From a virus (taxonomy: Duplodnaviria > Heunggongvirae > Uroviricota > Caudoviricetes): a DNA stretch of 54,350 nucleotides. The notes below the pieces were generated by a model. The model was not told the DNA's origin. It saw only the letters and a program-made list of their open reading frames with translations, and did no database searches. This document shows positions 3,894-53,432 of this stretch, one piece after another; the first letter of the stretch is position 1, and every line of letters begins with the position of its first letter. Location: the IMG/VR virus record IMGVR_UViG_2909257012_000004. The stretch is one strand, 5' to 3'. Made by a program: the position numbers and the translations under genes.

Positions 3894-3985
3894 TTTGTTT
3901 TACCTCATTACAGATTTAAGGGTGAACAAATCCCTGCCATTGCTGGCATATAAGAATGAAACCGGATATTTATTACGGAACTGTT

Positions 3986-4177
3986 TTAAAGACCTGCCGG
4001 GATTTCGTTATTATCCTGGTGAATAACTTTATCGACCGGGTAACAGTTACCGGGAATTTTCTGTTCGGTTGCTGCAGTCACACACTCCTGCATTGTCCTG
4101 TGAACACTGACTGCAATATCAACTGGCTCTCCGGAAACAAGAAAAACTGTCAGAACAAGTGCAAATGCTGTATTCAT
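3986..4177 (-). CDS. ydfD: YdfD-like small lysis protein (63 aa)
   Basis: Internal start MNTAFALVLTVFLVSGEPV... matches recalled Qin YdfD. ATGA overlap with the dicB stop. Confidence 0.75.
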   Translation of the reverse strand: MNTAFALVLTVFLVSGEPVDIAVSVHRTMQECVTAATEQKIPGNCYPVDKVIHQDNNEIPAGL

Positions 4178-4362
4178 TGCCAGCATCCTTTTTGTATCGG
4201 ACGTAAACGGGCCAGCATTGAAAGAATGCATATTTTATTTAATAGCTCCCGTTCGTGTTTTCTCTTGTTAATGGCATCTTCAGTAAATACAGGGTTACTG
4301 ATATTGACACCAATTTCAAAACAACCTTCAGACGTATTAACGTTTGGTAATAACGTTTCCAT
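4174..4362 (-). CDS. dicB: Cell-division inhibitor DicB (62 aa)
   Basis: METLLPNVNTSEGCFEIGVNISNPVFTEDAINKRKHERELLNKICILSMLARLRPIQKGCWQ is near-identical to recalled K-12 DicB, and lies directly downstream of dicF as in Qin. Confidence 0.85.
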   Translation of the reverse strand: METLLPNVNTSEGCFEIGVNISNPVFTEDAINKRKHERELLNKICILSMLARLRPIQKGCWQ

Positions 4363-4536
4363 TATCGCGTCCTCAACAATGAATTTTGTGATGCGGTGCC
4401 TGGTGCCTCCAGGTGACGTTAACCAGTTAACAATTAACGCCGGATACAGAGAATCCACCCATAACACTGTTTTTGGTTTTAACTGTTCCGCGTGCGCTCA
4501 GCCGCATTCACCACATCACAAAATTCACTTTAAAAA

Positions 4537-4589
4537 GGGCGGCAGAGCAGTCACGGAGTAAAACTGATACCGCCAAACGTCACCAGAAA
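4537..4589 (-). ncRNA. dicF: DicF small RNA (53 nt)
   Basis: Minus-strand sequence TTTCTGGTGACGTTTGGCGGTATCAGTTTTACTCCGTGACTGCTCTGCCGCCC matches the recalled DicF sequence exactly, including its 3' hairpin followed by a T-run. Confidence 0.9.
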
Positions 4590-4927
4590 ATTGATAACAG
4601 AGGGCGTTGCAGCGGAGTTGTCACTTAAGCGTATGGTCAACCTGACAACCCGGTGTCCTCAACGGAGGAAGGAATAACCCCGCCATACTTACCGCCGCGC
4701 CATTTCGCGGAGTGCCACAACCGGAAGCGCACGGTCGAACTAAATTTAACGACACCGTACAGAGAGACCAATTTCGCCGTGCGCTTTCGCTTTATGCCCT
4801 GACTTTTCAGGGACATATCCTTTCAGTAAACTGTCAGTGCCGGATGTTCACCCGTGTCCGGCGCACGCACTCCACCTGACCCGTGGAGAACTCCTTAATT
4901 ACCAACCTTAGCTTCGTTGGTTAGCTA

Positions 4928-5146
4928 TTAACGCGGGTATGTAACCATTCTGGCAATGCTTAATGCCGCTGCTTTTTCCAGCCTGGTGATATCCTGCTCC
5001 AGAGCGGACAGATTTTCAGCCTGCTTAGTCCTGGCTTCATTGGCCCATTTCAGATCCTGCGCTGCATTAATTTTCTGGCGCATCCACTCATAAAGTTCAT
5101 CATCGGTATAGTCTGGCGCGATGATGACGGGTTCTCGTTTCTGCAT
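4928..5146 (-). CDS. ydfC: YdfC-like protein (72 aa)
   Basis: 72-aa ORF in the ydfC position of the operon (between ydfB and dicF). Confidence 0.65.
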   Translation of the reverse strand: MQKREPVIIAPDYTDDELYEWMRQKINAAQDLKWANEARTKQAENLSALEQDITRLEKAAALSIARMVTYPR

Positions 5147-5175
5147 ACTGATTCCTCGCGGTGCTGCTTCGCTTA

Positions 5176-5304
5176 TCAGCCGTTAGATTTTGCCGAGCTG
5201 GAAAGCGCCTGTTTAAACTCACTGAAGCTGAGAGCTTCTTCGCCTTCGGCAAGGCCTTCGAAGTATTCTTCGTAAGCCTTTTCCATGATTGTGTCGAAAT
5301 CCAT
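5176..5304 (-). CDS. ydfB: YdfB-like small protein (42 aa); below the 60-aa cutoff of the ORF track
   Basis: Hand translation of the minus strand gives MDFDTIMEKAYEEYFEGLAEGEEALSFSEFKQALSSSAKSNG between ydfA and ydfC. Confidence 0.7.
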   Translation of the reverse strand: MDFDTIMEKAYEEYFEGLAEGEEALSFSEFKQALSSSAKSNG

Positions 5305-5305
5305 A

Positions 5306-5461
5306 TCACTCACCTGAGTTTCTTTCCAGCCAGCGACGGGCACCATTTTCGGTTTTAAACGTTTTGCTTTTGGTATACGTCATTGCGGTGAACGTGCCGT
5401 CCTGGTTGGGGAACACGCCACATACCAGAGATTCGCTGTTGCCAAGATCGATAGTATCCAT
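5306..5461 (-). CDS. ydfA: YdfA-like small protein (51 aa)
   Basis: Internal start MDTIDLGNSESLVCGVFPNQDGTFTAMTYTKSKTFKTENGARRWLERNSGE matches recalled Qin YdfA. Confidence 0.75.
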   Translation of the reverse strand: MDTIDLGNSESLVCGVFPNQDGTFTAMTYTKSKTFKTENGARRWLERNSGE

Positions 5462-5645
5462 GCTGACCTCATTTCCCCTTAACGCCGGGGGAGCGGAACA
5501 AAAACCTGCTGCATAGTTATTAAAGTTGAACCCTGCCGTCATGTTCTTACGCCTCGGGCTGGCTACTTACCCCCTGACCACTGCTTGGTAACTCGAAGTA
5601 TTGCCCGGCGTTCTGTGGGGCGGGGTGGGTTGGTATGTTGTTAAG

Positions 5646-5659
5646 GTAACAAGAGTTAC
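5646..5659. promoter_or_regulatory. OL-like operator palindrome GTAAC-AAGA-GTTAC in the leftward promoter region
   Basis: Same GTAAC-N4-GTTAC inverted repeat as the two copies between the repressor and cro-like genes. Confidence 0.5.
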
Positions 5660-5704
5660 CTTTCGAGTCAATACAATGTTGCAAAAGGTACATTTGAGGG
5701 CATA

Positions 5705-5731
5705 AAAAACCCGCAATGAATGCGGGTTCTG
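5705..5731 (-). terminator. Rho-independent terminator after the repressor gene
   Basis: Minus-strand hairpin AACCCGCATTCATTGCGGGTT followed by TTTTTTAT. Confidence 0.6.
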
Positions 5732-5733
5732 AC

Positions 5734-6408
5734 TCAGTCTAAGTATTGATGTATTTGTGAAACTTTACCTTTAATGGTGTAACCACCATTCAGTTCGATG
5801 GGTTTGTAAAGCGGATTCAGTGACAACAGATAGATGTTTGGTCCGTCAATCGCAACTTTTTTTAGTGTTACGTTTGGCGTTCCTTCCAATTGGATTAAGA
5901 TTATTTTTCCCACCAGTTCTCTAATGTTACTTGAGCATGGTGTGATCAGCACGGTAGATCCGTCGGGGATGGTTGGGAGGCCGTTAGAGTTTGTCATCGC
6001 ATCTCCCTCAACATGCAATAAAAAAGAGTTTTCAGCGGTTTTTGTCATGACATCAACCCAGTTCTTAATACCAGGAATCTTGGTTACTGGACAACTCATA
6101 TCCCAATAACCAGCCTGTTCCCACGTTAAAACGGGCAACCGGGCGATGTTGTCACTAATGTAAGGGTACTGATTCAGACGCAGATCATCGGTTTTATCGT
6201 GACCGTCCTTTCCATAAAGAATCCATTCAGGAGATTTGGAAAGCAATTTTGACAGTAGATACAAATTCTCACCGTCAGGTTTTGAAGAGCCATTTTCCCA
6301 TTTTGTTACGGATACACGAGATATGCCGATTGCTTTCGCAACCTGCTGTTGGGTTAATCCAACGTCTTTTCGACGATTCCGAATACGTTCGCTGATAGTG
6401 TTTTTCAT
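5734..6408 (-). CDS. CI-like prophage repressor (HTH XRE domain plus LexA/S24 peptidase domain)
   Basis: N-terminal HTH (GLTQQQVAKAIGISRVSVTKWENG) and a C-terminal S24-like domain. Start chosen at MKNTISERI (6408) because the ORF-track start at 6507 would overlap the divergent cro-like start and two operators lie between. Alternative starts at 6450 or 6507. Confidence 0.8.
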   Translation of the reverse strand: MKNTISERIRNRRKDVGLTQQQVAKAIGISRVSVTKWENGSSKPDGENLYLLSKLLSKSPEWILYGKDGHDKTDDLRLNQYPYISDNIARLPVLTWEQAGYWDMSCPVTKIPGIKNWVDVMTKTAENSFLLHVEGDAMTNSNGLPTIPDGSTVLITPCSSNIRELVGKIILIQLEGTPNVTLKKVAIDGPNIYLLSLNPLYKPIELNGGYTIKGKVSQIHQYLD

Positions 6409-6470
6409 GTAACCAATGTTACTACCAAGTGATGTTGCTATGGTTGACATTGTTATGTAACTATTGTTAC
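6409..6470. promoter_or_regulatory. OR-like region with two operator palindromes (GTAACCAATGTTAC at 6409-6422, GTAACTATTGTTAC at 6457-6470)
   Basis: Two 14-bp inverted repeats 48 bp apart in the divergent intergenic region between the repressor and cro-like genes. Confidence 0.6.
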
Positions 6471-6499
6471 CCTTCTGCTCGAAATAACAGGAGAGTTTT

Positions 6500-6715
6500 A
6501 TGTTCAAAGATGATGTTCTGCGCTATTTCAAAAAAAAGCGACTAGTAGCTGAGGCTCTTGGAATTTCACATGTGGCTGTTGTGCGGTGGAAAGCAGTTAT
6601 TCCCAAACTTCGCGCAATGGAACTGGATGAAATTACTAACGGTGAATTGAAATACAACCCAGAACTTTACAAGAAGCAGGATAGCACCTCGAACGAAGGA
6701 AAGAATGATTCATGA
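6500..6715 (+). CDS. Cro-like small DNA-binding regulator (Cro/CI or YdaS-like)
   Basis: 71-aa ORF divergent from the repressor, AGGAGA Shine-Dalgarno, HTH-like segment LGISHVAVVRWK. Confidence 0.65.
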   Translation: MFKDDVLRYFKKKRLVAEALGISHVAVVRWKAVIPKLRAMELDEITNGELKYNPELYKKQDSTSNEGKNDS

Positions 6716-7137
6716 AAATCAAGCATGAACACATCCGCATGGCGATGAATGCCTGGGCGCATCCGGACGGCGAAAAAGTGCCGGCTGCGAAAATTACCAA
6801 AGCGTATTTCGAGCTGGGAATGACGTTCCCGGAACTGTATGACGACAGCCATCCGGAAGCCCTGGCCCGTAATACCCAGAAAATTTTCCGTTGGCTGGAT
6901 AAAGACACCCCTGATGCTGTTGAAAAAATGCAGGCTCTGTTACCGGCGATCGAAAAGGCGATGCCGCCTTTGCTGGTGGCCCGTATGCGCAGCCACAGTT
7001 CTGAATATTACCGTGAGATCGTCGAACGGCGGGATCGGCTGGTGAAGGATGTCGATGATTTTGTTGCGTCAGCGGTTGTTTTGTATGACCAGATGAATCG
7101 CGGCGGCCCGGCAGGGAATGCTGTGGTGATGCACTAA
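6712..7137 (+). CDS. YdaT-like / CII-position regulatory protein
   Basis: 141-aa ORF translationally coupled to the cro-like gene (ATGA overlap). N-terminus MKIKHEHI resembles recalled YdaT. Confidence 0.5.
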   Translation: MKIKHEHIRMAMNAWAHPDGEKVPAAKITKAYFELGMTFPELYDDSHPEALARNTQKIFRWLDKDTPDAVEKMQALLPAIEKAMPPLLVARMRSHSSEYYREIVERRDRLVKDVDDFVASAVVLYDQMNRGGPAGNAVVMH

Positions 7138-7144
7138 AAGCACG

Positions 7145-8122
7145 GTGTTCGGGGGTTTTATGAGCAGCAAGCTTCATGGTCTTGTCTGGGAAGGGTGCGC
7201 CTTCACCGGCATGATCTTATCCAGGGTGGCGGTTATGGCCCGTCTTGCAGACTACAGCAATGACGAGGGCGTGTCATGGCCTGCCATTGAAACTATCCGG
7301 CGTCAGATCGGTGCAAGAAGTGAATCCACAGTGAAATCGGCTATTGCAGAACTGGCGAAAGAGGGCTGGCTGACGAAGGAAGAGCGTAAGGTCGGTGGGC
7401 GTAATGTAAGCAATATCTATCGGCTTAATGTGGAAAAACTCGAAGCAGCTGCGGCGGCGGCGCGTGAGTCATATAAACCGAAAAGAAAAATTAGCCCGGC
7501 AAAAAATGACCCGTTAACAGTTGACCCGTCAAATATTGACCCCTCAACGGTTGACCCGTCAAATTTTGATGGATCAACTGTTGATAAAAAACTGCCGATT
7601 AGGGGGCCGATGATTGACCCCGATCCGTCAGTATTAAAACCTGATCCGTCAGATAAAAGATCTTCTTGTCCGGACGCTTCGCAACCGGACCCGCAGACGG
7701 CTGAACAGGATTTTTTAACCCGACACCCTGACGCGGTTGTGTTCAGTGCGAAAAAACGCCAGTGGGGAAGTCAGGAAGATTTGGTGTGCGCACAGTGGAT
7801 CTGGGGACGAATCGTGAGTCTTTACGAGCAGGCGGCCAGCTATGATGGCGAGATCACTAGACCGAAAGAACCCAACTGGACAGCATGGACCAATGACGTT
7901 CGCACAATGCGGATGCTGGATGGCAGAACTCACAGACAAATTTGTGAAATGTTTGGGCGTCTCCAGCGGGATTCGTTCTGGGTAAAAAACATCATGAGTC
8001 CGGCAAAACTCCGGGAAAAATGGGATGAACTGGTTATCCGCCTGGGGCGTTCGCCTGCGCAGCGTTGCGTGAATCACATTTCTGAACCGGACACTGAAAT
8101 ACCGCCGGGATTCAGGGGGTGA
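7145..8122 (+). CDS. Replication initiator (lambda O-like); likely true start at 7160
   Basis: N-terminal HTH region, position upstream of the DnaC-like gene, and an internal iteron array. Confidence 0.7.
   Translation: MFGGFMSSKLHGLVWEGCAFTGMILSRVAVMARLADYSNDEGVSWPAIETIRRQIGARSESTVKSAIAELAKEGWLTKEERKVGGRNVSNIYRLNVEKLEAAAAAARESYKPKRKISPAKNDPLTVDPSNIDPSTVDPSNFDGSTVDKKLPIRGPMIDPDPSVLKPDPSDKRSSCPDASQPDPQTAEQDFLTRHPDAVVFSAKKRQWGSQEDLVCAQWIWGRIVSLYEQAASYDGEITRPKEPNWTAWTNDVRTMRMLDGRTHRQICEMFGRLQRDSFWVKNIMSPAKLREKWDELVIRLGRSPAQRCVNHISEPDTEIPPGFRG
7506..7590. repeat. Origin-like iteron array inside the initiator gene (about 5 repeats of TTGACCCGTCAAA-like units, ~15-bp period)
   Basis: Directly visible tandem repeats ttgacccgtcaaat / ttgacccctcaacg / ttgacccgtcaaat / tttgatggatcaact, encoding the DPSxxDPS protein repeats. 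Confidence 0.7.
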
Positions 8123-8128
8123 CGTGTC

Positions 8129-8875
8129 ATGAAAAACATTGCGGCAGTTGGGGTTCTTGAACGTATTCGCAGACTTGCACCACAGGGGTCGGTTCCACCG
8201 TACCGGACGGTGGAGGAGTGGCGGGAATGGCAACTTGCTGAAGGACGAAAACGCAGCGAGGAGATTAACCGCCAGAATCGCCAGTTGCGGGTGGAAAAAA
8301 TCCTGAATCGTTCGGGCATCCAGCCTCTGCACAGCAAATGCTCGTTTGCAAATTATCAGGTGCAGAACGACGGGCAAAAATACGCGCTGAGCCAGGCCAA
8401 ATCCATAGCTGACGAACTGATGACCGGGTGCACGAATTTTGTGTTCAGCGGTAAAACCGGCACCGGGAAAAATCACCTTGCAGCGGCGATGGGCAACCGG
8501 CTGATGGTGAAGGGGCGCAGCGTGATTATCGTCACCGTGTCTGACGTCATGAGCGTGTTGCATGACAGCTACGACAACGGCAAATCCGGGGAAAAATTTT
8601 TACAGGAGCTTTGCGGGGTTGATTTGCTGGTCCTGGATGAAATAGGCGTTCAGCGGGAGACGAAAAACGAGCAGGTGGTATTGCACCAGATAATTGATCG
8701 CCGGACAGCATCACTGTGCAGTGTCGGGATGTTAACAAACCTGAATCATGCCGCAATGAGTACGCTTCTTGGTGAGAGGATTATGGACCGCATGACCATG
8801 AACGGTGGTCGATGGGTGACGTTTAACTGGGATAGCTGGCGTCCAAATGTCAGCAATATGAGGGTTGTGAAGTAA
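8129..8875 (+). CDS. DnaC-like helicase loader (AAA+ ATPase)
   Basis: Walker A motif GKTGTGKNHLA and Walker B LLVLDEIG; follows the initiator gene. Confidence 0.85.
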   Translation: MKNIAAVGVLERIRRLAPQGSVPPYRTVEEWREWQLAEGRKRSEEINRQNRQLRVEKILNRSGIQPLHSKCSFANYQVQNDGQKYALSQAKSIADELMTGCTNFVFSGKTGTGKNHLAAAMGNRLMVKGRSVIIVTVSDVMSVLHDSYDNGKSGEKFLQELCGVDLLVLDEIGVQRETKNEQVVLHQIIDRRTASLCSVGMLTNLNHAAMSTLLGERIMDRMTMNGGRWVTFNWDSWRPNVSNMRVVK

Positions 8876-22336: not shown

Positions 22337-22831
22337 ATGAACCGTGTTCTGTGTGTGGTGATTATTGTCATGCTGGTAGCCTGTGGTGTGCTTAGTCTGG
22401 GGCTGAATCATTACCGCGATAACGCCATCACCTACAAAGCGCAGCGCGATAAAAAAGTCAGTGAGCTGAAACTGGCGAATGCCACTATTACTGACATGCA
22501 GCAGCGCCAGCGAGATGTCGCTGCGCTTGATGCCAGATACACGAAGGAATTAGCCGATGCGAGAGCTGAAAATGAAACTCTGCGCGCTGATGTTGCCGCT
22601 GGTCGTAAGCGCCTGCGGGTCAACGCCACCTGCCCCGGTACCGTGCGTGAAGCCACCGGCACCTCCAGCGTGGATAATGCAACCGGCCCCCGACTGGCAG
22701 ACACCGCTGAACGGGATTATTTCATCCTCAGAGAACGGTTGATGACAATGCAGAAGCAGCTGGAAGGGGCGCAGGAATATATCCGCACTCAGTGCACTAA
22801 GCTGGCTTTTTATTATCCGGAGGATACATGA
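22337..22831 (+). CDS. Rz inner-membrane spanin
   Basis: N-terminal transmembrane segment then coiled-coil; Rz1 embedded in the +1 frame. Confidence 0.8.
22572..22742 (+). CDS. Rz1 outer-membrane lipoprotein spanin, embedded in Rz
   Basis: [15 protein letters not shown] lipobox followed by a proline-rich sequence, entirely inside Rz. Confidence 0.75.
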
Positions 22832-23043
22832 AGAAATTACGGGTAACCGTAGAACCTTTTCAGGGAACAATTCCGTTCCGTATTTTGCAGCGTGGTCGTG
22901 TTCTTGTTGAAGGTTCGTTCAGTGGTAAATGTACGCAATTACACTCCCGGACCTTTCAGGTGAATGCCACGAATGAAGAGCTAACCGTGGAGTGTACGAT
23001 GAATGCCGCTAAATGCCGCATGGTATTACAGCCAGTGTGTTGA
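22828..23043 (+). CDS. Small hypothetical protein (71 aa, 4 Cys) translationally coupled to Rz
   Basis: ATGA overlap with the Rz stop and a GGAGGA Shine-Dalgarno. Confidence 0.45.
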
Positions 23044-23241
23044 GCGACCTTATTATCCATGCGCGGTATTGTCGCCGTATTCCTGCATTAACAGAGACCG
23101 CAGCCCGACAGGGAGACTCCTCTGCGCGAGTGTGCGGGGATAATCAAAAACGATACACACCGGGGTTTACCGCGTTAACGGAGCGCGGCGTTGTCCCCTC
23201 ATAGTCGCCTGTCCGGTGCGATGGTGGAAGAAACCGAACGT

Positions 23242-23442
23242 TCATTTCTCGTTATTTGTCATGCTGGCCGGGCGCAGATGCGTTGCATCTGTTGCCAGCC
23301 TTCTCCTGCAGGCTTCAATAACCCACGCTGAAAAGTTACCGGACCCTTTATGCTCAAGGGCGATGTTGATCTGTTCAATTATGTGATTGGGGAAACGGAT
23401 ATTGCGGGTTGTGGTTCTGCGGGTCCGGTTTTTCGATGACAT
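23242..23442 (-). CDS. Ribbon-helix-helix-like small DNA-binding protein (66 aa)
   Basis: Arc/CopG-like pattern RNIRFPNHIIEQINIALEHKG; AAGGAA Shine-Dalgarno; antisense to the late operon. Confidence 0.45.
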   Translation of the reverse strand: MSSKNRTRRTTTRNIRFPNHIIEQINIALEHKGSGNFSAWVIEACRRRLATDATHLRPASMTNNEK

Positions 23443-37100: not shown

Positions 37101-37393
37101 CCACGTACTTTGCGTTTGCAAAAGGGGCCGGGCTGATGGGGGAAGCCGGACCTGAAGCCATTATGCCCCTGACCCGGGCGGCGGATGGCTCGCTGGGCGT
37201 ACGCGCGGTGGGCAGTATGAACGGCAGTGCCGGTCTGGTGTATTCCCCGGTCTACCACATCGCCATTCAGAATGACGGGGCTAACGGACAGATAGGGGCG
37301 GAGGCGGCAGGCAGTCTTGTGCAGCTGATTGACCAGCGGGTGCAGGCGGTGATGCTGTCCATGCGACGTGACGGAGGAATGCTGAGTGGCTGA
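34151..37393 (+). CDS. Tail tape measure protein
   Basis: 1080-aa largely helical protein after the G/GT chaperone pair. Confidence 0.9.
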   Translation: MATLRELIIKISANSQSFQSEIQRASRMGSEYYRTLQNGGRQAAAVARVQRRALAELNSQLTEIRASAAGTAGAFAGAFATGHLISLADEWSSVNARLKQASQSSDEFSSSQKVLMDISQRTGTAFSDNAALFARSAASMREYGYSADDVLKVTEAISTGLKISGASTAEAGSVITQFSQALAQGVLRGEEFNSVNESGDRIVRALAAGMGVARKDLKAMADDGKLTADKVVPALISQLGVLRDEYAAMPETVSDGITKVENAFMAWVGGANEASGATKTLSGVLNGVAGNIDNVATAAGALVAVGVARYFGNMASGAVSATAGLVTAARNEVALAEAQLRGTQIATARARAAVYRAQQAVAAARGTEMQIAAEARLAATQERLNRNIAARTAAQNELNSTTAVGSRLMTGALGLVGGVPGLVMLGAAAWYTLYQNQEQARESARQYALTIDEIAHKTPSMSLPEASDNEGRTRAALAEQNRLIDEQASRVKSLQEKIAGYQYVLANPGWTTGDGFMINHLTSVKTVTEGLSQATEQLAVEQSRLAQMQEKAQSIQDVLAGLEDRRVALIRQQAAEQNKVYQSMLVMNGQHTEFNRLLGLGNELLQQRQGLVNVPLRLPQATLDDKQQSALTKTERELALSRLKGEEKERARLGYAADDLGFVGDSYQEARQRYISNALEAWRNNEANKPKSRGGKSETEKAEDSFSRLLKQQKEQLALAGQNTELAKLKYQTAQGELKTLTEMQKQELLRNAALIDQQKIREQLRSREETLKNDNVAARASNEAELLGYGQGERARERMRELQQIRDSFRQKDADLQSQYQTGDISEDFYRQARAQNAQYLSERLKDQAAFYAESDAQRADWQKGLQEGLSNWVDNASDYASQAAQLATEGISGMVNNITEMLNGNKVEWRNWASSVLQEISKVLMNAAIVNGIKTAANGMSGAGGFIGSIGDWLGGAVANAKGGVYTSANLSAYSNSIVDTPTYFAFAKGAGLMGEAGPEAIMPLTRAADGSLGVRAVGSMNGSAGLVYSPVYHIAIQNDGANGQIGAEAAGSLVQLIDQRVQAVMLSMRRDGGMLSG

Positions 37394-43640: not shown

Positions 43641-44020
43641 ATGCGTAAATTATGTGCTGTTATTTTGTCCGCAGTAGTCTGGCAGGTCGCCGCTGCTACG
43701 CCAGCGAGTGCAGCAGAACATCAGTCCACGCTGAGCGCGGGGTATCTCCATGCCTCGACGAACGTTCCCGGTAGTGATGATCTGAACGGGATTAACGTGA
43801 AATACCGTTATGAGTTTACGGACGCGCTGGGGCTGATTACGTCCTTCAGTTATGCCAATGCTGAGGATGAGCAAAAAACGCGCTACAGCGATACCCGCTG
43901 GCATGAAGATTCCGTGCGTAACCGCTGGTTCAGCGTGATGGCGGGGCCGTCTGTACGCGTGAATGAATGGTTCAGCGCGTATGCGATGGCGGGTGTGGCT
44001 TACAGCCGTGTGTCGACTTT
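43641..44020 (+). pseudogene. lom: lom (Ail/Lom outer-membrane protein) 5' fragment, interrupted by an IS21-family insertion
   Basis: Signal peptide and Lom-like N-terminus; the reading frame runs into the IS terminal repeat at 44021. Confidence 0.8.
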
Positions 44021-44213
44021 TGCGTATTTTCATGAAAGGAGATCACTCAATAACTTCCATCGAGATCGGGTAATAACATTTGAACAGATCGCTGAATAAC
44101 ATCGATGGAGATCACTTTTGACTCATTTTGTTATTCAGTGATCTCCATCAATGTTATTGGAACTTCACAGGTGTGTTGATCTGTATCTTTTGCCATTCCG
44201 GTAAAGGATACCT

Positions 44214-45755
44214 ATGCCAACAGTTCCAATTTCTATGAGAAAACTTAAAGAAATTCTTAGGCTTAAATACGGTGTTGGACTCAGCCATCGACAAATTGGT
44301 CGTAGTCTTGCAATCTCCCCTTCCGTTGTATCCAGATATGCTAATCGGGCGGCTCAACTTGGCATAAAGCAGTGGCCCTTACCTACAGGATGGGATGATA
44401 CAAAACTAAAACATGCGTTCCTTCAGACCCAGGTTAAGATGAAGAAGCACTCTCTGCCTGACTGGGCTACAGTACACCGGGAACTGCGTAATAAATGCGT
44501 GACGCTGCAGCTACTCTGGGAAGAATACTGTGAGCGTAATCCAAGCGGTTTTTACAGCTATAACCATTACTGCCGGATGTACCGTGAATGGCTCAAAACC
44601 ACTTCACCATCAATGCGTCAGGTACATAAAGCTGGCGAAAAACTTTTCGTTGATTACTGTGGACCTACCGTTGGCGTTACCGACCCTGAGACCGGAGAAA
44701 TAAGAACTGCTCAGGTCATCGTAGCTGTTCTCGGGGCATCAAGTTACACATGGGCAGAGGCCACCTGGTCTCAGCAGCTTGAAGACTGGGTGATGAGTCA
44801 TGTTCGCTGCTTCCAGTGGTTGGGTGGCGTTCCTGAACTTGTTGTTCCGGACAATCTGAAAAGCGCCACATCCAGGGCATGTAAGTATGATCCTGACGTT
44901 AACCCTACCTACCAGCAGATGCTTGAGCATTATAATGTCGCAGTTTTGCCTGCGCGGCCACGTAAACCGAAAGATAAAGCCAAAGCTGAAGTTGGCGTTC
45001 AGGTTGTTGAACGCTGGATCATGGCCCGAATCAGGCATGAGATCTTCTACAGCCTTGCATCGCTTAATCAGCGCATTCGGGAGTTGCTGGAAAGACTGAA
45101 TAACAAAATAATGCAGAAGTTGGGTTATTCACGTGCAGAACTCTTCATCCAGCTTGATAAACCCGCACTGAAGCCTCTTCCTGAAGCCAGTTACAGTTAC
45201 ACCCTGGTGAAGAAAGTCAGAGTTCATGCCGATTACCACGTGGAAATCGACAAACATTACTACTCGGTTCCATGTTCGCTGTTAGGCCAGCAACTGGAAG
45301 CATGGATCTCCGGAGAACTGGTAAGACTCTTCAATCAGGGGCAGGAGGTTGCTGTGCACCCGCGCAAGCGTACTTATGGCTACAGTACCCGCAACGAGCA
45401 CATGCCTGAAGCTCATCGACAGCATGCCACCTGGACGCCAGAGCGTCTTCTGGAATGGGCGGGGCACATAGGCAGTGAAACTCATAGTTATGTGCTTCAT
45501 ATACTGAACTCTCGTCCACATCCGGAACAAAGCTATCGCTTCTGCCTTGGACTCCTGAACCTTCATAAAAAATACAGTAAAGCCAGACTTAATGCAGCAT
45601 GTGCAAGAGCTCTGAAAACAAAGGTATGGCGTCTGTCAGGTATTAAATCGATCCTGGAAAAAGGTCTGGATAAACAACCTGTTCAGGATCCAAAACCAGA
45701 TCTGTTATCCACGATGGAACACGAAAACGTACGCGGCAGTGAGTATTACCACTGA
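44214..45755 (+). CDS. istA: IS21-family transposase IstA
   Basis: 513-aa ORF with N-terminal HTH and a DDE-type transposase core. Confidence 0.85.
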   Translation: MPTVPISMRKLKEILRLKYGVGLSHRQIGRSLAISPSVVSRYANRAAQLGIKQWPLPTGWDDTKLKHAFLQTQVKMKKHSLPDWATVHRELRNKCVTLQLLWEEYCERNPSGFYSYNHYCRMYREWLKTTSPSMRQVHKAGEKLFVDYCGPTVGVTDPETGEIRTAQVIVAVLGASSYTWAEATWSQQLEDWVMSHVRCFQWLGGVPELVVPDNLKSATSRACKYDPDVNPTYQQMLEHYNVAVLPARPRKPKDKAKAEVGVQVVERWIMARIRHEIFYSLASLNQRIRELLERLNNKIMQKLGYSRAELFIQLDKPALKPLPEASYSYTLVKKVRVHADYHVEIDKHYYSVPCSLLGQQLEAWISGELVRLFNQGQEVAVHPRKRTYGYSTRNEHMPEAHRQHATWTPERLLEWAGHIGSETHSYVLHILNSRPHPEQSYRFCLGLLNLHKKYSKARLNAACARALKTKVWRLSGIKSILEKGLDKQPVQDPKPDLLSTMEHENVRGSEYYH

Positions 45756-45766
45756 TACGGGATCCA

Positions 45767-46516
45767 ATGATGAATCATCTTTACGAACAACTGACCGCAC
45801 TTAAACTCACCGGCTTCCGTGATGCGCTTAAAAAGCAACTTGCTCAACCGGGCACATACCAGGAGCTGGGCTTCGAAGAACGCCTGTCATTACTGACAGC
45901 AGAAGAACTAACCTGCCGTGAAAACAGGAAGGCAGAGCGTCTGATCAAACATGCACGGTTCAGACTTAATGCTGAGTTATCAAAGCTGGATTATCGTAAC
46001 AATAGAGGGCTGGACAGGGCCCTCATCCGTTCACTCAGTCAGGGAAACTGGTTAACCCTGAAACAAAATATTTTACTGACCGGGGCCACCGGCAGCGGTA
46101 AAACGTTCCTGGCATGTGCACTTGGTCATAATGCCTGCCGACAGGGATACAAGGTCTACTATTATCGCCTTAAAGCGCTGATGGAACAGTGCTATCAGGG
46201 GCATGCTGATGGAAGATACAGCAAACTTTTGACCAGGCTGAATAATAGCGATCTGCTGCTTCTGGATGACTGGGGGCTGGAACCTCTCTCATCAGAACAG
46301 CGTAGCGACCTGCTGGAAATAGTGGATCTGATGTACCAACGAGGCTCAATCATCGTAGTGAGCCAGTTGCCGGTGGAAAACTGGTACAAAATGATCGGAG
46401 ACTCCACACATGCGGATGCCATCCTAGATCGACTGGTTCATGGCAGTATCAAGATCGAACTTAAAGGAGAATCAATGCGGAAAATACAATCTCCGTTGAC
46501 CGAAGGAGATCAGTGA
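45767..46516 (+). CDS. istB: IS21-family ATP-binding helper IstB
   Basis: Walker A GATGSGKT and Walker B LLLLDDWG. Confidence 0.85.
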   Translation: MMNHLYEQLTALKLTGFRDALKKQLAQPGTYQELGFEERLSLLTAEELTCRENRKAERLIKHARFRLNAELSKLDYRNNRGLDRALIRSLSQGNWLTLKQNILLTGATGSGKTFLACALGHNACRQGYKVYYYRLKALMEQCYQGHADGRYSKLLTRLNNSDLLLLDDWGLEPLSSEQRSDLLEIVDLMYQRGSIIVVSQLPVENWYKMIGDSTHADAILDRLVHGSIKIELKGESMRKIQSPLTEGDQ

Positions 46517-46601
46517 AGGTAATTTAAAAACGGTTCTGTGAAAGTGACACGAACCGATCTCCATCGATGTTACTCACCGATCTCCTTCACGGTAATACGC
46601 A

Positions 46602-46826
46602 ACTTTCTCCGGGGATTATCTCCGCGTAACTGACAACAAGGGGAAAACGCACGATGTGCTGACCGGAAGTGATGACGGTCGCCACAGCAACACGTCTCTG
46701 GCGTGGGGGGCTGGCGTGCAGTTTAACCCGACCGAATCCGTGACCATTGACCTTGCTTATGAAGGTTCCGGTAGTGGCGACTGGCGAACGGATGCATTTA
46801 TTGTTGGTATCGGATACCGTTTCTGA
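46602..46826 (+). pseudogene. lom: lom 3' fragment (in frame with the 5' fragment once the IS and one target-duplication copy are removed)
   Basis: Translation ...TFSGDYLRVTDNKGKTHDVLTGSDDGRHSNTSLAWGAGVQFNPTESVTIDLAYEGSGSGDWRTDAFIVGIGYRF* resumes exactly after the duplicated ACTTT. Confidence 0.8.
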
Positions 46827-46977: not shown

Positions 46978-49803
46978 ATGACAGTAAAAATTTCTGGCGT
47001 GCTTAAAGATGGCACAGGAAAACCAGTACAGAACTGCACCATTGTGCTGAAGGCCAGACGAACCAGCAGCACGGTGGTGGTGAACACGGTGGCCTCTGAA
47101 AATCCGGATGAAGCCGGACGTTACAGCATGGATGTTGAGCATGGTCAGTACAGCGTCACCCTGCTGGTTGAAGGTTTTCCGCCTTCACATGCCGGGACCA
47201 TTACCGTCTATGAAGGTTCCAGACCAGGTACGCTGAATGATTTTCTCGGTGCCATGACGGAGGATGATGTACGACCGGAGGCACTGCGCCGCTTTGAGCA
47301 GATGGTAGAAGAGGTGTCACGTAACGCCTCCGCGGTTGCACAGAATACGGCAGCCGCGAAAAAATCAGCCAGCGATGCCAGTGCATCAGCCAGCGAGGCG
47401 GCAACTCATGCAACCGATGCTGCAGCCTCATCACGTGCCGCCAGCACGTCAGCCGGACAGGCCGCGTCGTCGGCTCAGTCAGCGTCTTCCAGCGCAGGAA
47501 CGGCATCGACAAAGGCCCGTGAAGCAGCAAAAAGTGCTGCTGCTGCAGAGTCATCAAAAAGCGCGGCAGCTACCAGCGCCAGTGCCGCGAAAACGTCAGA
47601 AACGAATGCCGCAGCATCACAAAAATCGGCAGCCACTTCTGCATCCACAGCGACCACGAAGGCGTCAGAAGCTGCCACCTCGGCACGGGGTGCGGCGGCC
47701 TCAAAAGAGGCAGCGAAATCTTCAGAAACGAATGCATCATCAAGTGCCAGTAGTGCAGCTTCCTCGGCAACGGCGGCAGGAAATTCCGCGAAGGCGGCAA
47801 AAACGTCCGAGACGAACGCTAAGTCTTCTGAAACAGCAGCGGGACAGAGCGCCTCAGCTGCGGCAGGTTCAAAAACAGCGGCTGCATTATCTGCCAGTGC
47901 CGCGTCAACAAGTGCCGGGCAGGCCTCAGCCAGTGCCACCGCCGCCGGAAAATCGGCAGAAAGCGCCGCATCATCCGCTTCAACAGCCACAACGAAGGCT
48001 GGCAAAGCCACTGAGCAAGCCACTGCAGCAGCGAGGTCTGCTTCTGCAGCAAAAACCTCTGAAACAAATGCAAAGACTTCAGCAGACAATGCTGCTTCCT
48101 CTAAGGCGGCAGCCGCATCGTCAGCCAGTTCAGCGGCGTCATCGGCATCATCTGCGTCTGCTTCAAAAGATGAGGCGACCAGACAGGCGTCAGCAGCAAA
48201 GGGCAGCGCCACGACGGCATCCACGAAGGCGACAGAGGCAGCTGGCAGTGCGACGGCGGCAGCTCAGAGCAAAAGTACGGCGGAATCCGCGGCAACGCGC
48301 GCCGAGACAGCGGCAAAACGGGCAGAGGATATTGCATCCGCCGTGGCGCTTGAGGATGCGAGCACGACGAAAAAGGGGATAGTACAGCTCAGCAGTGCGA
48401 CCAACAGCACTTCCGAGTCACTGGCGGCAACGCCAAAAGCGGTTAAGGCGGTAATGGGTGAAACGAACAAGAAAGCGCCCTTAAATAGTCCTGCACTGAC
48501 CGGAACGCCAACAACACCAACTGCGCGACAGGGAACGAATAATACCCAAATCGCAAGCACGGCTTATGTTATGGCTGCGATCGCTGCCCTCGTGGACTCG
48601 TCGCCTGACGCACTGAATACGCTGAACGAGCTGGCTGCGGCGTTGGGCAACGACCCGAATTTTGCGACCACCATGACTAGCGCGCTTGCGGGTAAGCAAC
48701 CGAAAGATGCCACCCTGACGGCGCTGGCCGGGCTTGCTACTGCGGCAGACAGGTTTCCGTATTTTACGGGGAATGATGTTGCCAGTCTGGCAACCCTGAC
48801 AAAAGTTGGGCGGGATATTCTTGCGAAATCGACCGTTGCCGCCGTTATCGAATACCTCGGTTTACGAGAACTCGGCACAAGCGGGGAGAAAATACCGTTA
48901 CTCAGTACAGCGAATACCTGGACTAATCGACAAACATTCAGCGGTGGCCTTTCTGGTGAACTATCCGGCAATGCTTCTACAGCTGCAAAATTAAAAACTG
49001 CCAGGAAAATAAGCAATGTGGCTTTTGATGGTTCCTCCGATATCACATTAAAAGCAAGTCATGTTGGTGCGTTTGCCTTAGGGAAAACAGGAAGCACCGT
49101 TGCGAATGATAAAGCAGTTGGATGGAACTGGAGTAGCGGAGCCTATAACGCAACTATTAGTGGTGCATCAACGTTAATTATTCATTTTTATATGGGAGAA
49201 GGAAGTTGTCCTGCAGCTCAGTTTCGGATTAATTATAAAAATGGCGGTATTTTTTATCGTTCAGCCCGTGATGGTTATGGTTTTGAAGCCGACTGGTCCG
49301 AATTTTACACCACCACCAGAAAGCCTTCAGCAGGAGATGTTGGTGCACTGCCGTTATCTGGTGGTCAACTGAATGGTGCACTGGGTATCGGAACATCCAG
49401 TGCTCTTGGCGGTAATTCGATTGTATTGGGTGATAATGACACGGGCTTTAAACAAAATGGCGATGGTAATCTGGATGTTTATGCTAATAACGTCCATGTT
49501 ATGCGCTTTGTCTCCGGAAGCATTCAAAGTAATAAAACCATAAATATTACAGGGCGTGTTAACCCCTCGGATTACGGTAACTTTGATTCCCGTTATGTGA
49601 AAGATGTTCGACTTGGTTCACAGCAATATTATGGAGTGAACAACTGGCAAACATGGAATTTCCAGTGCCCTTCAGGTCATGTATTGTCTGGTATTAATGT
49701 TCAGGATACAGGGTCTAACTCTGCCGATAATATAGCGGGCGTTTATTACAGACCCGTTCAAAAGTATATAAATGGCACCTGGTATAATGTAGCGAGCGTT
49801 TAA
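46978..49803 (+). CDS. Side tail fibre protein: constant N-terminal part with a long Ala/Ser-rich repeat region, variable C-terminal part inside an invertible segment
   Basis: 941-aa ORF with a low-complexity region (~47320-48360) and an invertase crossover site at 48845-48870; followed by tfa. Confidence 0.85.
48845..48870. other. Left crossover site of the invertible tail-fibre segment (gix/pix-like): TTATCGAATACCTCGGTTTACGAGAA
   Basis: 26-bp match to the recalled Gin/Pin recombination-site consensus, in inverted orientation to the site at 51926-51951. Confidence 0.7.
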
Positions 49804-49804
49804 T

Positions 49805-50338
49805 ATGATGCACTTAAAGAACATAAAAGCGGGTAATGCTAAAACACTGGAACAGTATGAGTTAACAAAGAAACACGGAGTTATCTGGCTTTACTCTGAG
49901 GACGGAAAAAACTGGTATGAGGAAGTGAAAAACTTTCAGCCAGACACCATAAAGATTGTTTACGATGAAAATAATATTATTGTTGCCATAACCAAAGATG
50001 CCTCCACACTTAACCCTGAAGGTTATAGCGTCGTTGAGATTCCTGATATTACCGCCAACCGGCGTGCTGACGACTCAGGTAAATGGATGTTTAAAGATGG
50101 CGCAGTCATTAAACGTGTATATACCGAAGAAGAGTTGCGCCTACAGACGGAAAACCAGAAAAAAATATTATTACAGCAGGCCAGAGAAAAAACGCAGTTC
50201 TGGCAAACACAGCTTACTTTGGGGATTATCACTGATTCAGACAGACAGCAACTGATGAACTGGATGCGATACGTGCAACAGGTTGAGACAACTGATACCT
50301 CGGTTCTTCCTGTAACATTCCCGGAACCACCAGAATAA
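49805..50338 (+). CDS. Tail fibre assembly chaperone (Tfa)
   Basis: 177-aa ORF directly after the fibre gene. Confidence 0.85.
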
Positions 50339-50339
50339 G

Positions 50340-50362
50340 AAAAGGCCCGTACGGGCCTTAAT
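50340..50362. terminator. Bidirectional terminator hairpin between the convergent tfa genes
   Basis: AAGGCCCGTACGGGCCTT perfect stem-loop. Confidence 0.6.
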
Positions 50363-50368
50363 TTGTTG

Positions 50369-50896
50369 TTATTCTGGTTTCTGTGGCCATTCAGGCTTTG
50401 CAGTATCCACACGGCTGACCATAACGCTGTAGCGTTCCCATGATTCCAGTCGTGTGCGTTCCTCATCAGTTGCCATATTCAGTCTGACAGCACGTTCCAG
50501 CGGTTGAATCACAGACTCCGCTTCGGAAAGCAAAGCGGCTTTTTGTAACTCTGCCTGCTGTTGCAGTTCCTGTTTTGTATATTCCCGCTTTACTACTTTA
50601 CCATCCAGAAACTTCCAGTTTCCCGAGATATCGGCGCGACGGTTGGCTGTTATATTCGGTAACTCAACAACACTTAACCCGTCAGGGTTAAGTGTTGATA
50701 CGTCTTTCTCAATACAACGAATAATCCCCTTCTGGTCATAAGCTATTTTTAAAGTATCATCCTGAAAGTTTTTTAATTCGTCATACCAGTTTTTACCGTC
50801 TTCTGTATATAGCCAGATAACGCCAGCTTTTTTCGTAAGCTGATACTGCTCAATGGTTTTGGGGTTTCCGGCGGTAATATTTTTCAGATGTTGCAT
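50369..50896 (-). CDS. Alternative tail fibre assembly chaperone (Tfa-prime), opposite orientation
   Basis: 175-aa paralogue of the plus-strand Tfa ([23 protein letters not shown]...). Confidence 0.8.
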
Positions 50897-50911
50897 ATAT
50901 TCTCCTGATGG

Positions 50912-51938
50912 CTATGCCTGTTCAACGTTATACCAGTTACCAGAAATGTATTTTTGTAGTGGTCGTGACACCATCCAGTCATCTCCATCAACCTCACCAA
51001 TAATTTGCAATCCTGTTGTCACATGACCATTACCTGGTTCGCAAAGTCCTCCGCGATATAATGTGTCAGAACGTCTGCCTCCCAGACGCACATTTCTGAT
51101 AAAAGAACTATTCAGGTAATCATTTAAGTTTGACCCCCAGCACCCACCAAATATATTTCCATCGGTGTTATAACGGACGCCACCCGCAATAAGAGCACCC
51201 GGTGAAATAAAGGATTTATCGTTCGGGTTAAACTGCCATAAAGCATCATTACCGCCATCGCCACGCATATGAATACATGGAACCGGAAATCCATACTGTT
51301 CTGTCAGTAAATACCCAAAGCTGACCGCGCCGGGATAGCCCTGTCCATTGCGAATGGACAAGCCCTTAACTATCGGCACGTAAAGACCACCAGGAGTGGG
51401 ATTCCAGGCAAACTGCGTCTGAACAAAAGGCGCGGTGGCATTATTCAACTGGTCTGCAAATGCGCCACTTCCATCAGGAATTATTCCCTGATGAATATAT
51501 GCAACCCGCTTATAAAAATCAGCAGATGCGGGTTGAAGCCCAAATGCCAGTTGTCCATTTGAATAGAATAAAAGGACACCGTCGCCGCCCTGTTTAATAC
51601 CAGTGTCGTTATCTCCGAGAGTAATGGAATTACCGCCCAGTGCGTTATCTGTACCAAGCGCCAGCCCACCATCAATTTTGGCCCCGTGGCTGACAGATAT
51701 AGCACCTGTTCTCAGATTTATAGCGAATGGCCTTAATGGGCCGATATCACCGTTTTCGCCTTGTCCTTCAGCCGTCGGAATGAAATGAAGAAAATCTTCT
51801 GAACGACGGAAAATAAGACCGAAGGCATCATTGAAAATTCGCAGCGCATTCACCGTGCCAATTTTCAGTTCTCCGGTCATTTTATCGCCGGAACGCTGAA
51901 CGGCGTTACCAGCCTTGTTTACCGTTTCCTGTAAACCG
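50912..51938 (-). CDS. Alternative tail-fibre C-terminal segment (currently unexpressed orientation)
   Basis: Minus-strand frame is open from the crossover site through 50912; the six-frame track shows it as a 322-aa ORF from its first Met at 51880. The segment has no start of its own and is in frame with the constant fibre part only after inversion. Confidence 0.7.
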
Positions 51939-51951
51939 AGGTTTTAGATAA
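51926..51951. other. Right crossover site of the invertible segment: TTCCTGTAAACCGAGGTTTTAGATAA
   Basis: Near-identity to the recalled gix consensus, immediately upstream of the invertase remnant. Confidence 0.75.
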
Positions 51952-52004
51952 TGGCGGTTTCTGGCCTGCATGGCATGATTTGTGCTTTTGGACGGGAGAT
52001 TCAG

Positions 52005-52188
52005 CGTGCTGATTGGCTATGTAAGGGTATCAACAAATGACCAGAATACAGATCTGCAACGAAACGCTCTTGTTTGTGCAGGATATGAACAAATATTTGA
52101 AGATAAATTAAGCGGAACAAGGACAGGCCGACCTGGATTAAAACGTGCTTTAAAGCGCCTTCAAAAAGGTGACGCACTGGTTGTCTGA
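52005..52188 (+). pseudogene. DNA invertase (Pin/Gin/Hin serine recombinase) N-terminal remnant, truncated after about 61 codons
   Basis: VLIGYVRVSTNDQNTDLQRNALVCAGYEQIFEDKLSGTRTGRPGLKRALKRLQKGDALVV then stop; downstream sequence is fused to a tfa 3' fragment. Confidence 0.75.
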
Positions 52189-52248
52189 AAACTGGACTGA
52201 CTGGTTCACTGTATGCGGCATCTTGTCGTGCTGGTGGTGGAAGCCTAG

Positions 52249-52382
52249 AAAAAGTATCGGGTGTTACTGAACCGTGTTGATACATCAACTGCACCTGATA
52301 TTGAGTGGCCTACGAACCCTGTCAGGGAGTAATCATTGGGATTATGCCGCAGCACGTCTTAAGCAAGAACGTGCTGCGGTTG
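52249..52382. repeat. Direct repeat copy A (~134 bp; tfa 3'-end sequence plus downstream palindrome)
   Basis: About 90% identical by eye to 53300-53432. Confidence 0.7.
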
Positions 52383-52386
52383 GATG

Positions 52387-53055
52387 CTATTTTTTCCCTG
52401 AAGCGGAAAACATTACTACAGTACCTTGAACCTTGGTTTTAACATTCTCGAAATGCTCTGAGAGTATATGTGTTAAGCCTTCTTCGGAATCTTTTGTGTT
52501 TGAAAAGATGCCTTTCTGATTGTAAATGCGCATCAGTTTTTGACCGAAGCTATTGTGCACAACTCCATCGCCAAGAATTGTGGCTCCGTATAGAGTTCCA
52601 TCGTCAGTTAAGGCCTGCGCCGCATTGCGTATTACACAGCTTTTTGTAGATATATTTCCAGGCAGGCAGTGAAGAAGGTAAAACATGGAAATGGAATCAA
52701 ATTGACCATGTAACGCCGCGGGATAAGGTTCAAAAACATCATGGCTAATTTTATGTTTAATTTTTGATTCCCCAGCCCTTGTAGATGCCGCGTTCAGGCT
52801 AGCTTCGTTCAAATCCATTAAAGATATCAGACTACTCTCAGGTACGTGAGTAAGGTAAAACCCAGTTCCAACACCAATATCCAGATGGTTGTTACCTACA
52901 TGTTCCAGAAAGTGTGGAAGAAGGTGTTCCTTTGTAGGACATCCCCATGCAAGCCGATTTGATACTCCCAAAACCCACCAGTCATAAAGCTTTAGGGTAA
53001 GTGGTGTGTAAATTTTAGCCCCATCATCTGTGTTTTTTTTCATTGATTTCACCAT
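52387..53055 (-). CDS. Class I SAM-dependent methyltransferase (cargo gene, visibly AT-rich)
   Basis: Rossmann-fold SAM motifs LDIGVGTGFY, LMDLN and FDSISMFYLLHCLP; no DPPY/NPPY or PCQ DNA-methylase motif. Confidence 0.7.
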   Translation of the reverse strand: MVKSMKKNTDDGAKIYTPLTLKLYDWWVLGVSNRLAWGCPTKEHLLPHFLEHVGNNHLDIGVGTGFYLTHVPESSLISLMDLNEASLNAASTRAGESKIKHKISHDVFEPYPAALHGQFDSISMFYLLHCLPGNISTKSCVIRNAAQALTDDGTLYGATILGDGVVHNSFGQKLMRIYNQKGIFSNTKDSEEGLTHILSEHFENVKTKVQGTVVMFSASGKK

Positions 53056-53111: not shown

Positions 53112-53381
53112 ATGCTGCCGCAGCATAGCGATATTGAAATAGCCTGGTATGCTTCGATACAGCAGGAGCCGAATGGCTGGAAGACCGTCACCACACAGTT
53201 CTACATCCAGGAATTCAGTGAGTATATTGCGCCACTGCAGGATGCTGTAGATCTGGAAATCGCAACGGAGGAAGAAAGATCGTTGCTGGAGGCATGGAAT
53301 AAATATCGGGTATTGTTGAATCGTGTTGATACATCAACTGCACCTGATATTGAGTGGCCTGCAAATCCTGTCAGGGAGTAA
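53112..53381 (+). pseudogene. Tail fibre assembly protein C-terminal fragment
   Basis: Only the C-terminal ~89 aa of a Tfa (…[19 protein letters not shown]); overlaps direct repeat copy B. Confidence 0.6.
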
Positions 53382-53432
53382 TCATTGGGATTATGCCGCA
53401 GACACGTCGTATGCAGGAACGTGCTGCGGTTA
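53300..53432. repeat. Direct repeat copy B (~134 bp)
   Basis: Matches 52249-52382. Confidence 0.7.

Follow-up and report, generated by a model that had tools for sequence, protein, structure and literature searches.

Reversible inversion of a DNA segment carrying alternative tail-fibre ends is known from the G segment of phage Mu, the C segment of P1 and the P segment of the E. coli prophage e14. In Mu the constant N-terminal part of the fibre gene is followed by a gix site, the two cassettes Sv-U and U'-S'v, a second gix site and then the gene of the Gin invertase. The invertases of the Din family (Gin, Cin, Pin, Hin) are functionally interchangeable. The P segment of e14 in K-12 is inverted either by Pin or by PinQ of the cryptic prophage Qin (PMC12529663). 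The window analysed here is a stretch of 54,350 nt from a tailed-phage record (IMGVR_UViG_2909257012_000004), in which positions 46978-52332 make up the distal tail-fibre module of the lambdoid prophage Phi4. By layout and sequence this locus is a switch like those of Mu G, P1 C or e14 P, joined to a Stf of the lambda type. We read it as a Gin/Pin-type switch whose own invertase is dead, and which is inverted by the invertase of a co-resident prophage; the probability of this reading is put at about 0.9.

The locus is already known. Judged by its sequence, it is the invertible tail-fibre segment of the lambdoid prophage Phi4 of E. coli sequence type 131 (ST131), and the window is 100% identical to Phi4. 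Forde et al. 2014 (PLoS One; PMC4134206) placed the Phi4 region of strain EC958 at 1484784..1487890, with an invertible segment of 3106 bp (counted including the 26-bp sites) and a truncated invertase, EC958_1582, that is without its helix-turn-helix domain. The half-sites forming the left site of the window are those listed for Phi4 in their Table 3, where they are paired the other way round, as the opposite orientation requires. The same single culture also gave a distinct PacBio contig of 12.7 kb with the Phi4 segment in the alternative orientation, and inversion in trans by the invertase of the Phi1 prophage was proposed; they pointed to this enzyme on account of the near-identity of the sites in the two prophages. 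The segment belonging to Phi1 itself was flipped in ∼50% of the reads (PMC4134206). Thus the locus, the truncated invertase, the inversion and its explanation in trans have all been in print since 2014, and as a discovery the locus matters little. The genomic position is also common to these strains, Phi4 of JJ1886 sitting in ompW and adjoining the trp operon as it does in EC958. The EC958 reference assembly differs in having the opposite orientation, while that of the window is shared with JJ1886, U12A and 4/0. A later preprint on ST131 wound isolates describes DNA inversions in three homologous prophages; those in Entero_BP_4795 and Entero_P88 were confirmed by polymerase chain reaction and XmnI digestion, and an invertase was carried only by the Entero_P88 and Burkho_phiE255 prophages.

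The features of the locus are itemized in Table 1. Two crossover sites flank ∼3.1 kb containing two opposed cassettes, each made up of a variable fibre C-terminus and a tfa chaperone gene. The sites lie in inverted orientation, are alike at 22 of 26 positions and have the same central dinucleotide (TC/GA); both belong to a longer inverted repeat of 32 nt (48839-48870 / 51926-51957), whose arms show 84% complementarity. A degenerate pattern designed to cover either site and allowing up to three mismatches matched these sites and nowhere else in the 54 kb window, and gave no matches in 100 shuffles. The right site is identical to gix, as taken from the Mu record, at 25 of 26 positions and the left site at 22 of 26. 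The left site is also identical at all 26 positions to one crossover site of the ST131 prophage Phi1. On these comparisons the Phi4 repeats class as canonical gix-type sites.

Inversion of 48857-51939 in silico generates an open fibre reading frame of 968 amino acids, against 941 at present. The silent C-terminus B has its frame closed upstream by a TAA codon (51944-51946) located in the outer half of the right site. It begins with LGLQETVNKAGNAVQ, the counterpart of NLGLQETVNRARNAVQ, where the constant and variable parts of Mu S meet, and the junction motif LGLQETVN is common to Mu and Phi4. The order of elements is also that of Mu, and the chaperones share 69-78% identity with U' and U. The two systems differ in that Phi4 is lambdoid and its Stf has an N-terminus of the lambda type (PF08400), and in that the fibre tips are mostly unlike, only about the last 80 amino acids aligning with Mu S (40-51%). 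A first-pass annotation, made from the DNA alone, had described inverted 26-bp Gin/Pin-type sites at these positions, a ∼3.1-kb segment with a fibre C-terminus and tfa on the plus strand and an alternative C-terminus and tfa-prime on the minus strand, and a Mu-G-like architecture designed to switch in frame. The sites were recovered by the repeat search, the pattern scan and the comparison with gix, and the cassettes by the open reading frames and by PF02413 on both strands. The fibre frame remains open across the joined half-sites with the junction exactly as it had been given, and the Mu-like design is supported.

The invertase gene of Phi4, unlike that of Mu, is dead. From a GTG at 52006 it runs for 60 codons to a TGA (52186-52188), where intact genes have TGG. 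This agrees with its earlier description as a cognate invertase reduced to an N-terminal remnant of ∼61 codons. It matches positions 2-69 of the 145 in the PF00239 profile and retains the catalytic-serine motif YVRVSTNDQ. Over its first 183 nt the identity is 96% to Mu gin and 94.5% to the intact Phi1 invertase gene. After 52196 the identity to both falls abruptly from ∼95% to ∼55% (52197-52245). The diverged homology stays in frame, contains a second stop and extends to about codon 80, keeping motifs (…MRHLVVLV…) that resemble other invertases; the sequence suggests a mosaic joint at ∼52196 that is older than the truncation. Beyond about codon 80 all invertase sequence is gone, including the oligomerisation helix (E-helix) and the helix-turn-helix DNA-binding domain, and the gene therefore cannot be functional. 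Readthrough of the stop codons was considered and ruled out, the C-terminal two-thirds of the gene being physically absent. In JJ1886 the remnant is annotated as 'recombinase family protein, missing C-terminus'. The broken gene is fused to a 3' fragment of tfa, which marks the deletion or recombination that took away the remainder of the invertase gene. A Chi sequence, GCTGGTGG, occurs at 52230-52237, at the passage between the last invertase homology (∼52242) and the tfa fragment. It may be a coincidence, or may hint at how the gene was broken.

With its invertase gone, the segment might be a frozen relic, the fossil of a former switch locked in one orientation. The first-pass annotation took this view, calling the switch 'locked' and 'probably frozen' unless a recombinase acts in trans. 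It draws support from the reduction of the invertase to 60 codons with no DNA-binding domain, and from other decay of the prophage, where lom is split by ISEc12. The relic is refuted by the two orientations, and keeps next to no probability. A query of 4001 nt over the locus is 100% identical in ST131 genomes such as JJ1886, JJ1887, U12A and 4/0. The same 4001 nt inverted in silico are found, identical over their full length, in EC958, U13A, U14A, U15A, 4/1-1, 4/4 and many others, so that both orientations exist at 100% identity. The orientations were counted with junction queries of 1201 nt, which start within the segment, cross the site and the invertase remnant and end in the downstream methyltransferase gene, at a coverage of at least 80%; the wrong orientation, or a locus with an intact invertase, would cover <80% of the query. 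Among the 382 genomes with the same truncated gene, 143 had the orientation of the window and 239 the inverted one, a split that is not a switching rate because an assembly shows just the prevailing orientation in its culture. Matches in two pieces were considered as a longer variant of the locus, and this was ruled out: the second repeat of the tfa remnant had been joined into the same match.

The closest comparison is provided by U12A-U15A, serial urine isolates from one patient that are 26 core single-nucleotide polymorphisms apart and have near-identical chromosomes (PMC6692316). U12A has the orientation of the window and U13A, U14A and U15A are inverted; thus repeated flipping of the segment goes on in a lineage whose Phi4 invertase is dead. 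The occurrence of both orientations in one EC958 culture (PMC4134206) likewise contradicts a frozen switch. The exception that the first-pass annotation had allowed, a recombinase acting in trans, appears to be what happens. The orientation counts give modest added support for a switch that is active across the ST131 clone.

The perfect match of the in-silico product does not reveal the route by which it arose. Were the flips due to RecA-mediated homologous recombination between the short inverted repeats, a crossover anywhere in the common run ACCTCGGTTTAC would yield a product indistinguishable from that of cleavage at the core, so the match cannot separate this route from a site-specific one. 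Efficient RecA exchange usually needs ∼25 bp. The arms have only 12 consecutive identical bases within the 32-nt, 84% repeat, too few for inversion frequent enough to give mixed cultures. Moreover the repeats are of the canonical gix type and intact cognate enzymes are present in the genome. Recombination by RecA is consequently regarded as very improbable.

The preferred reading is one of site-specific inversion, in which the segment would be inverted by conservative exchange at the core dinucleotide. The cis machinery of Phi4 is intact, comprising the inverted 26-bp sites with their common core, an enhancer-homologous stretch and two open cassettes. Its own serine invertase is dead through the nonsense codon at position 61 and the absence of anything beyond about codon 80. 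A co-resident prophage, Phi1, Phi2 or an allelic variant of these, would provide the enzyme in trans, an invertase of the Din family, with host Fis as a probable cofactor, and either fibre might then be put to use. All of the family features tested are found at Phi4 except an adjacent intact serine invertase, so that the locus is a cis-complete but trans-dependent member of the Din-family tail-fibre inversion systems. This dependence on an enzyme in trans follows from the loss of its own invertase, and is unlike the situation in Mu.

Intact candidates for the enzyme are present. An invertase of 199 amino acids (WP_000905061.1) lies beside the invertible fibre segment of the P2-like prophage Phi1, both in EC958, where Phi4 is inverted, and in JJ1886, where it has the orientation of the window. 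A second, of 190 amino acids (WP_000904922.1), is found in the Mu-like prophage Phi2, next to aroA. Other intact Pin/Gin-family invertases in the genome were what the first-pass annotation had suggested looking for. As these are present in Phi1 and Phi2, the two orientations do not occur in a genome devoid of other invertases, the case that it had set against its own account.

The site that stimulates Gin is said, from the title of a 1985 paper by Kahmann et al., to lie within the invertase gene. The remnant of Phi4 contains a stretch of 64 bp at ∼95 bp from the crossover point, with 15-mers of the form G...C at 52027-52041 and 52076-52090. The enhancer of Hin is 65 bp in length, has Fis sites at both ends and lies ∼100 bp from hix (PMC3798978), and the Phi4 stretch fits this description in position and length. 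The enhancer thus appears to survive in the remnant.

Several points weigh against the reading as a whole, beside the limit on the orientation counts noted above. The Fis sites at 52027-52090 are putative, assigned from homology and position only. The U12A lineage has at the Phi1 position a different invertase allele, with 87% amino acid identity and an adjacent site with an AA core (U12A locus 10134-10860), and the orientation of Phi4 varies within this lineage despite the different allele. In AZ 191 no Phi1-type invertase was found by megablast, the best match to the full Phi1 invertase query being the Phi4 remnant itself. The most cautious formulation attributes the inversion to some co-resident invertase.

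These strains bear most directly on the narrower proposal of Forde et al., that the enzyme acting in trans is specifically the Phi1 invertase and not that of Phi2. The near-identity of the Phi1 and Phi4 sites, with one pair alike at every position, speaks for it, as do the similarity of the remnant to the 5' end of the Phi1 gene (94.5% at the nucleotide level) and the frequent flipping of Phi1's own segment (PMC4134206). U12A-U15A differ in Phi4 orientation, yet carry the divergent allele and AA-core sites; AZ 191 is without a detectable Phi1-type gene and retains the Phi2 invertase (AZ 191 locus 22756-23328); and Din invertases are known to be interchangeable. Because of the U12A allele and AZ 191, the attribution to Phi1 is weaker than the attribution to some co-resident invertase, and it is held tentatively, at slightly under even odds. 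The comparative data hint that inversion may do without this particular Phi1 allele. U12A had been considered as a strain lacking Phi1, as it was missing among the best 60 matches to a Phi1-specific query; this was ruled out, as a P2-like prophage occupies the same place and carries the 87%-identical allele. AZ 191 is the only defensible case of an ST131 strain without the Phi1 invertase. The ST131 sublineages thus differ in their invertase repertoire, as seen in U12A and AZ 191, which offers a way to identify the enzyme that flips Phi4.

Returning to the inversion of one prophage by another, Phi4 in the preferred reading is a clear-cut case, found in nature, of a host-range switch that has lost its own enzyme and is reliant on the invertase of another prophage. 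Its inversion accounts for a structural difference that recurs between ST131 assemblies and for spurious additional contigs in them. A parallel recently established by experiment is the P segment of e14, where an invertible stf/tfa region in a defective E. coli prophage can likewise be acted on in trans by the invertase of another prophage. It differs from Phi4 in that e14 retains its own pinE, and in the host phenotype of StfE2 of e14, a receptor-masking anti-phage factor that blocks adsorption of T2 (PMC12529663). The cassettes, sites and enhancer stretch of Phi4 might have been kept by selection, either because Phi4 is still a viable phage that borrows invertases of co-resident P2-like or Mu-like prophages to vary its host range, or because the host uses one form of Stf as a receptor-masking anti-phage factor like StfE2. 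We think this unlikely; the ST131 clone is young, which would account for the conservation just as well.

Table 1. Features of the Phi4 tail-fibre module, with positions in the window
Feature	Position	Strand	Description
stf, side tail-fibre gene, present orientation	46978-49803	+	941 amino acids; PF08400 over residues 1-134, E=5e-70
stf constant part	46978-48856	+	upstream of the core dinucleotide
Left 26-bp crossover site	48845-48870	+	reads TTATCGAATACC TC GGTTTACGAGAA; core dinucleotide TC at 48857-48858; inside the stf reading frame
stf variable C-terminus A	48859-49803	+	present orientation
tfa, tail-fibre assembly chaperone for variable end A	49805-50338	+	177 amino acids; PF02413, E=6e-32; 69% identical to Mu U'
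G+C-rich hairpin between the convergent cassettes	50342-50359	both	terminator-like by consensus scan only; total of terminator-like sites in the scanned region shows no excess over shuffles
tfa', alternative chaperone for variable end B	50369-50896	-	175 amino acids; PF02413, E=9e-35; 78% identical to Mu U
Silent fibre C-terminus B, promoterless	50912-51943	-	open frame from 51943 down to 50915; stop codon 50912-50914
Right 26-bp crossover site	51926-51951	-	reverse complement reads TTATCTAAAACC TC GGTTTACAGGAA; core GA at 51938-51939
Invertase pseudogene	52006-52245	+	partial PF00239; from alignments to Mu gin and the Phi1 invertase; EC958_1582 of Forde et al. 2014
Putative Fis-dependent recombinational enhancer	52027-52090		62 of 64 positions match the corresponding stretches of Mu gin and of the intact Phi1 invertase gene
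tfa 3' fragment fused to the broken invertase gene	52249-52332	+	repeat 52235-52352 versus 53284-53401, 89%; tail fibre assembly pseudogene in JJ1886

Downstream of the remnant, a gene for a class I S-adenosylmethionine-dependent methyltransferase (52387-53055, minus strand) of low G+C content (0.39-0.43) is located between two 3' remnants of tfa that are 89% identical (52235-52352 and 53284-53401), and looks like a moron-type insertion. In other E. coli lineages the same junction between truncated invertase and tfa is found without the methyltransferase gene. Upstream of the fibre module lom (region 43641-46826) is split by the IS21-family element ISEc12, with istA at 44214-45755 and istB at 45767-46516; the N-terminal part of lom lies at 43641-44099 and the C-terminal part at 46656-46826. 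The tape-measure gene of the window is intact (34151-37393, 1080 amino acids), while that of Phi4 in JJ1886 is interrupted by an ISEcp1-blaCTX-M-15 insertion (JJ1886 locus 2361-8849). The window therefore comes from an ST131 strain other than JJ1886, and its Phi4 looks less decayed. The stf gene is annotated in JJ1886 as 'prophage tail fiber N-terminal domain-containing protein', and its constant part contains at 47300-48300 a long Ala/Ser/Thr-rich region with degenerate repeats of ∼30 nt and a strong AT skew.

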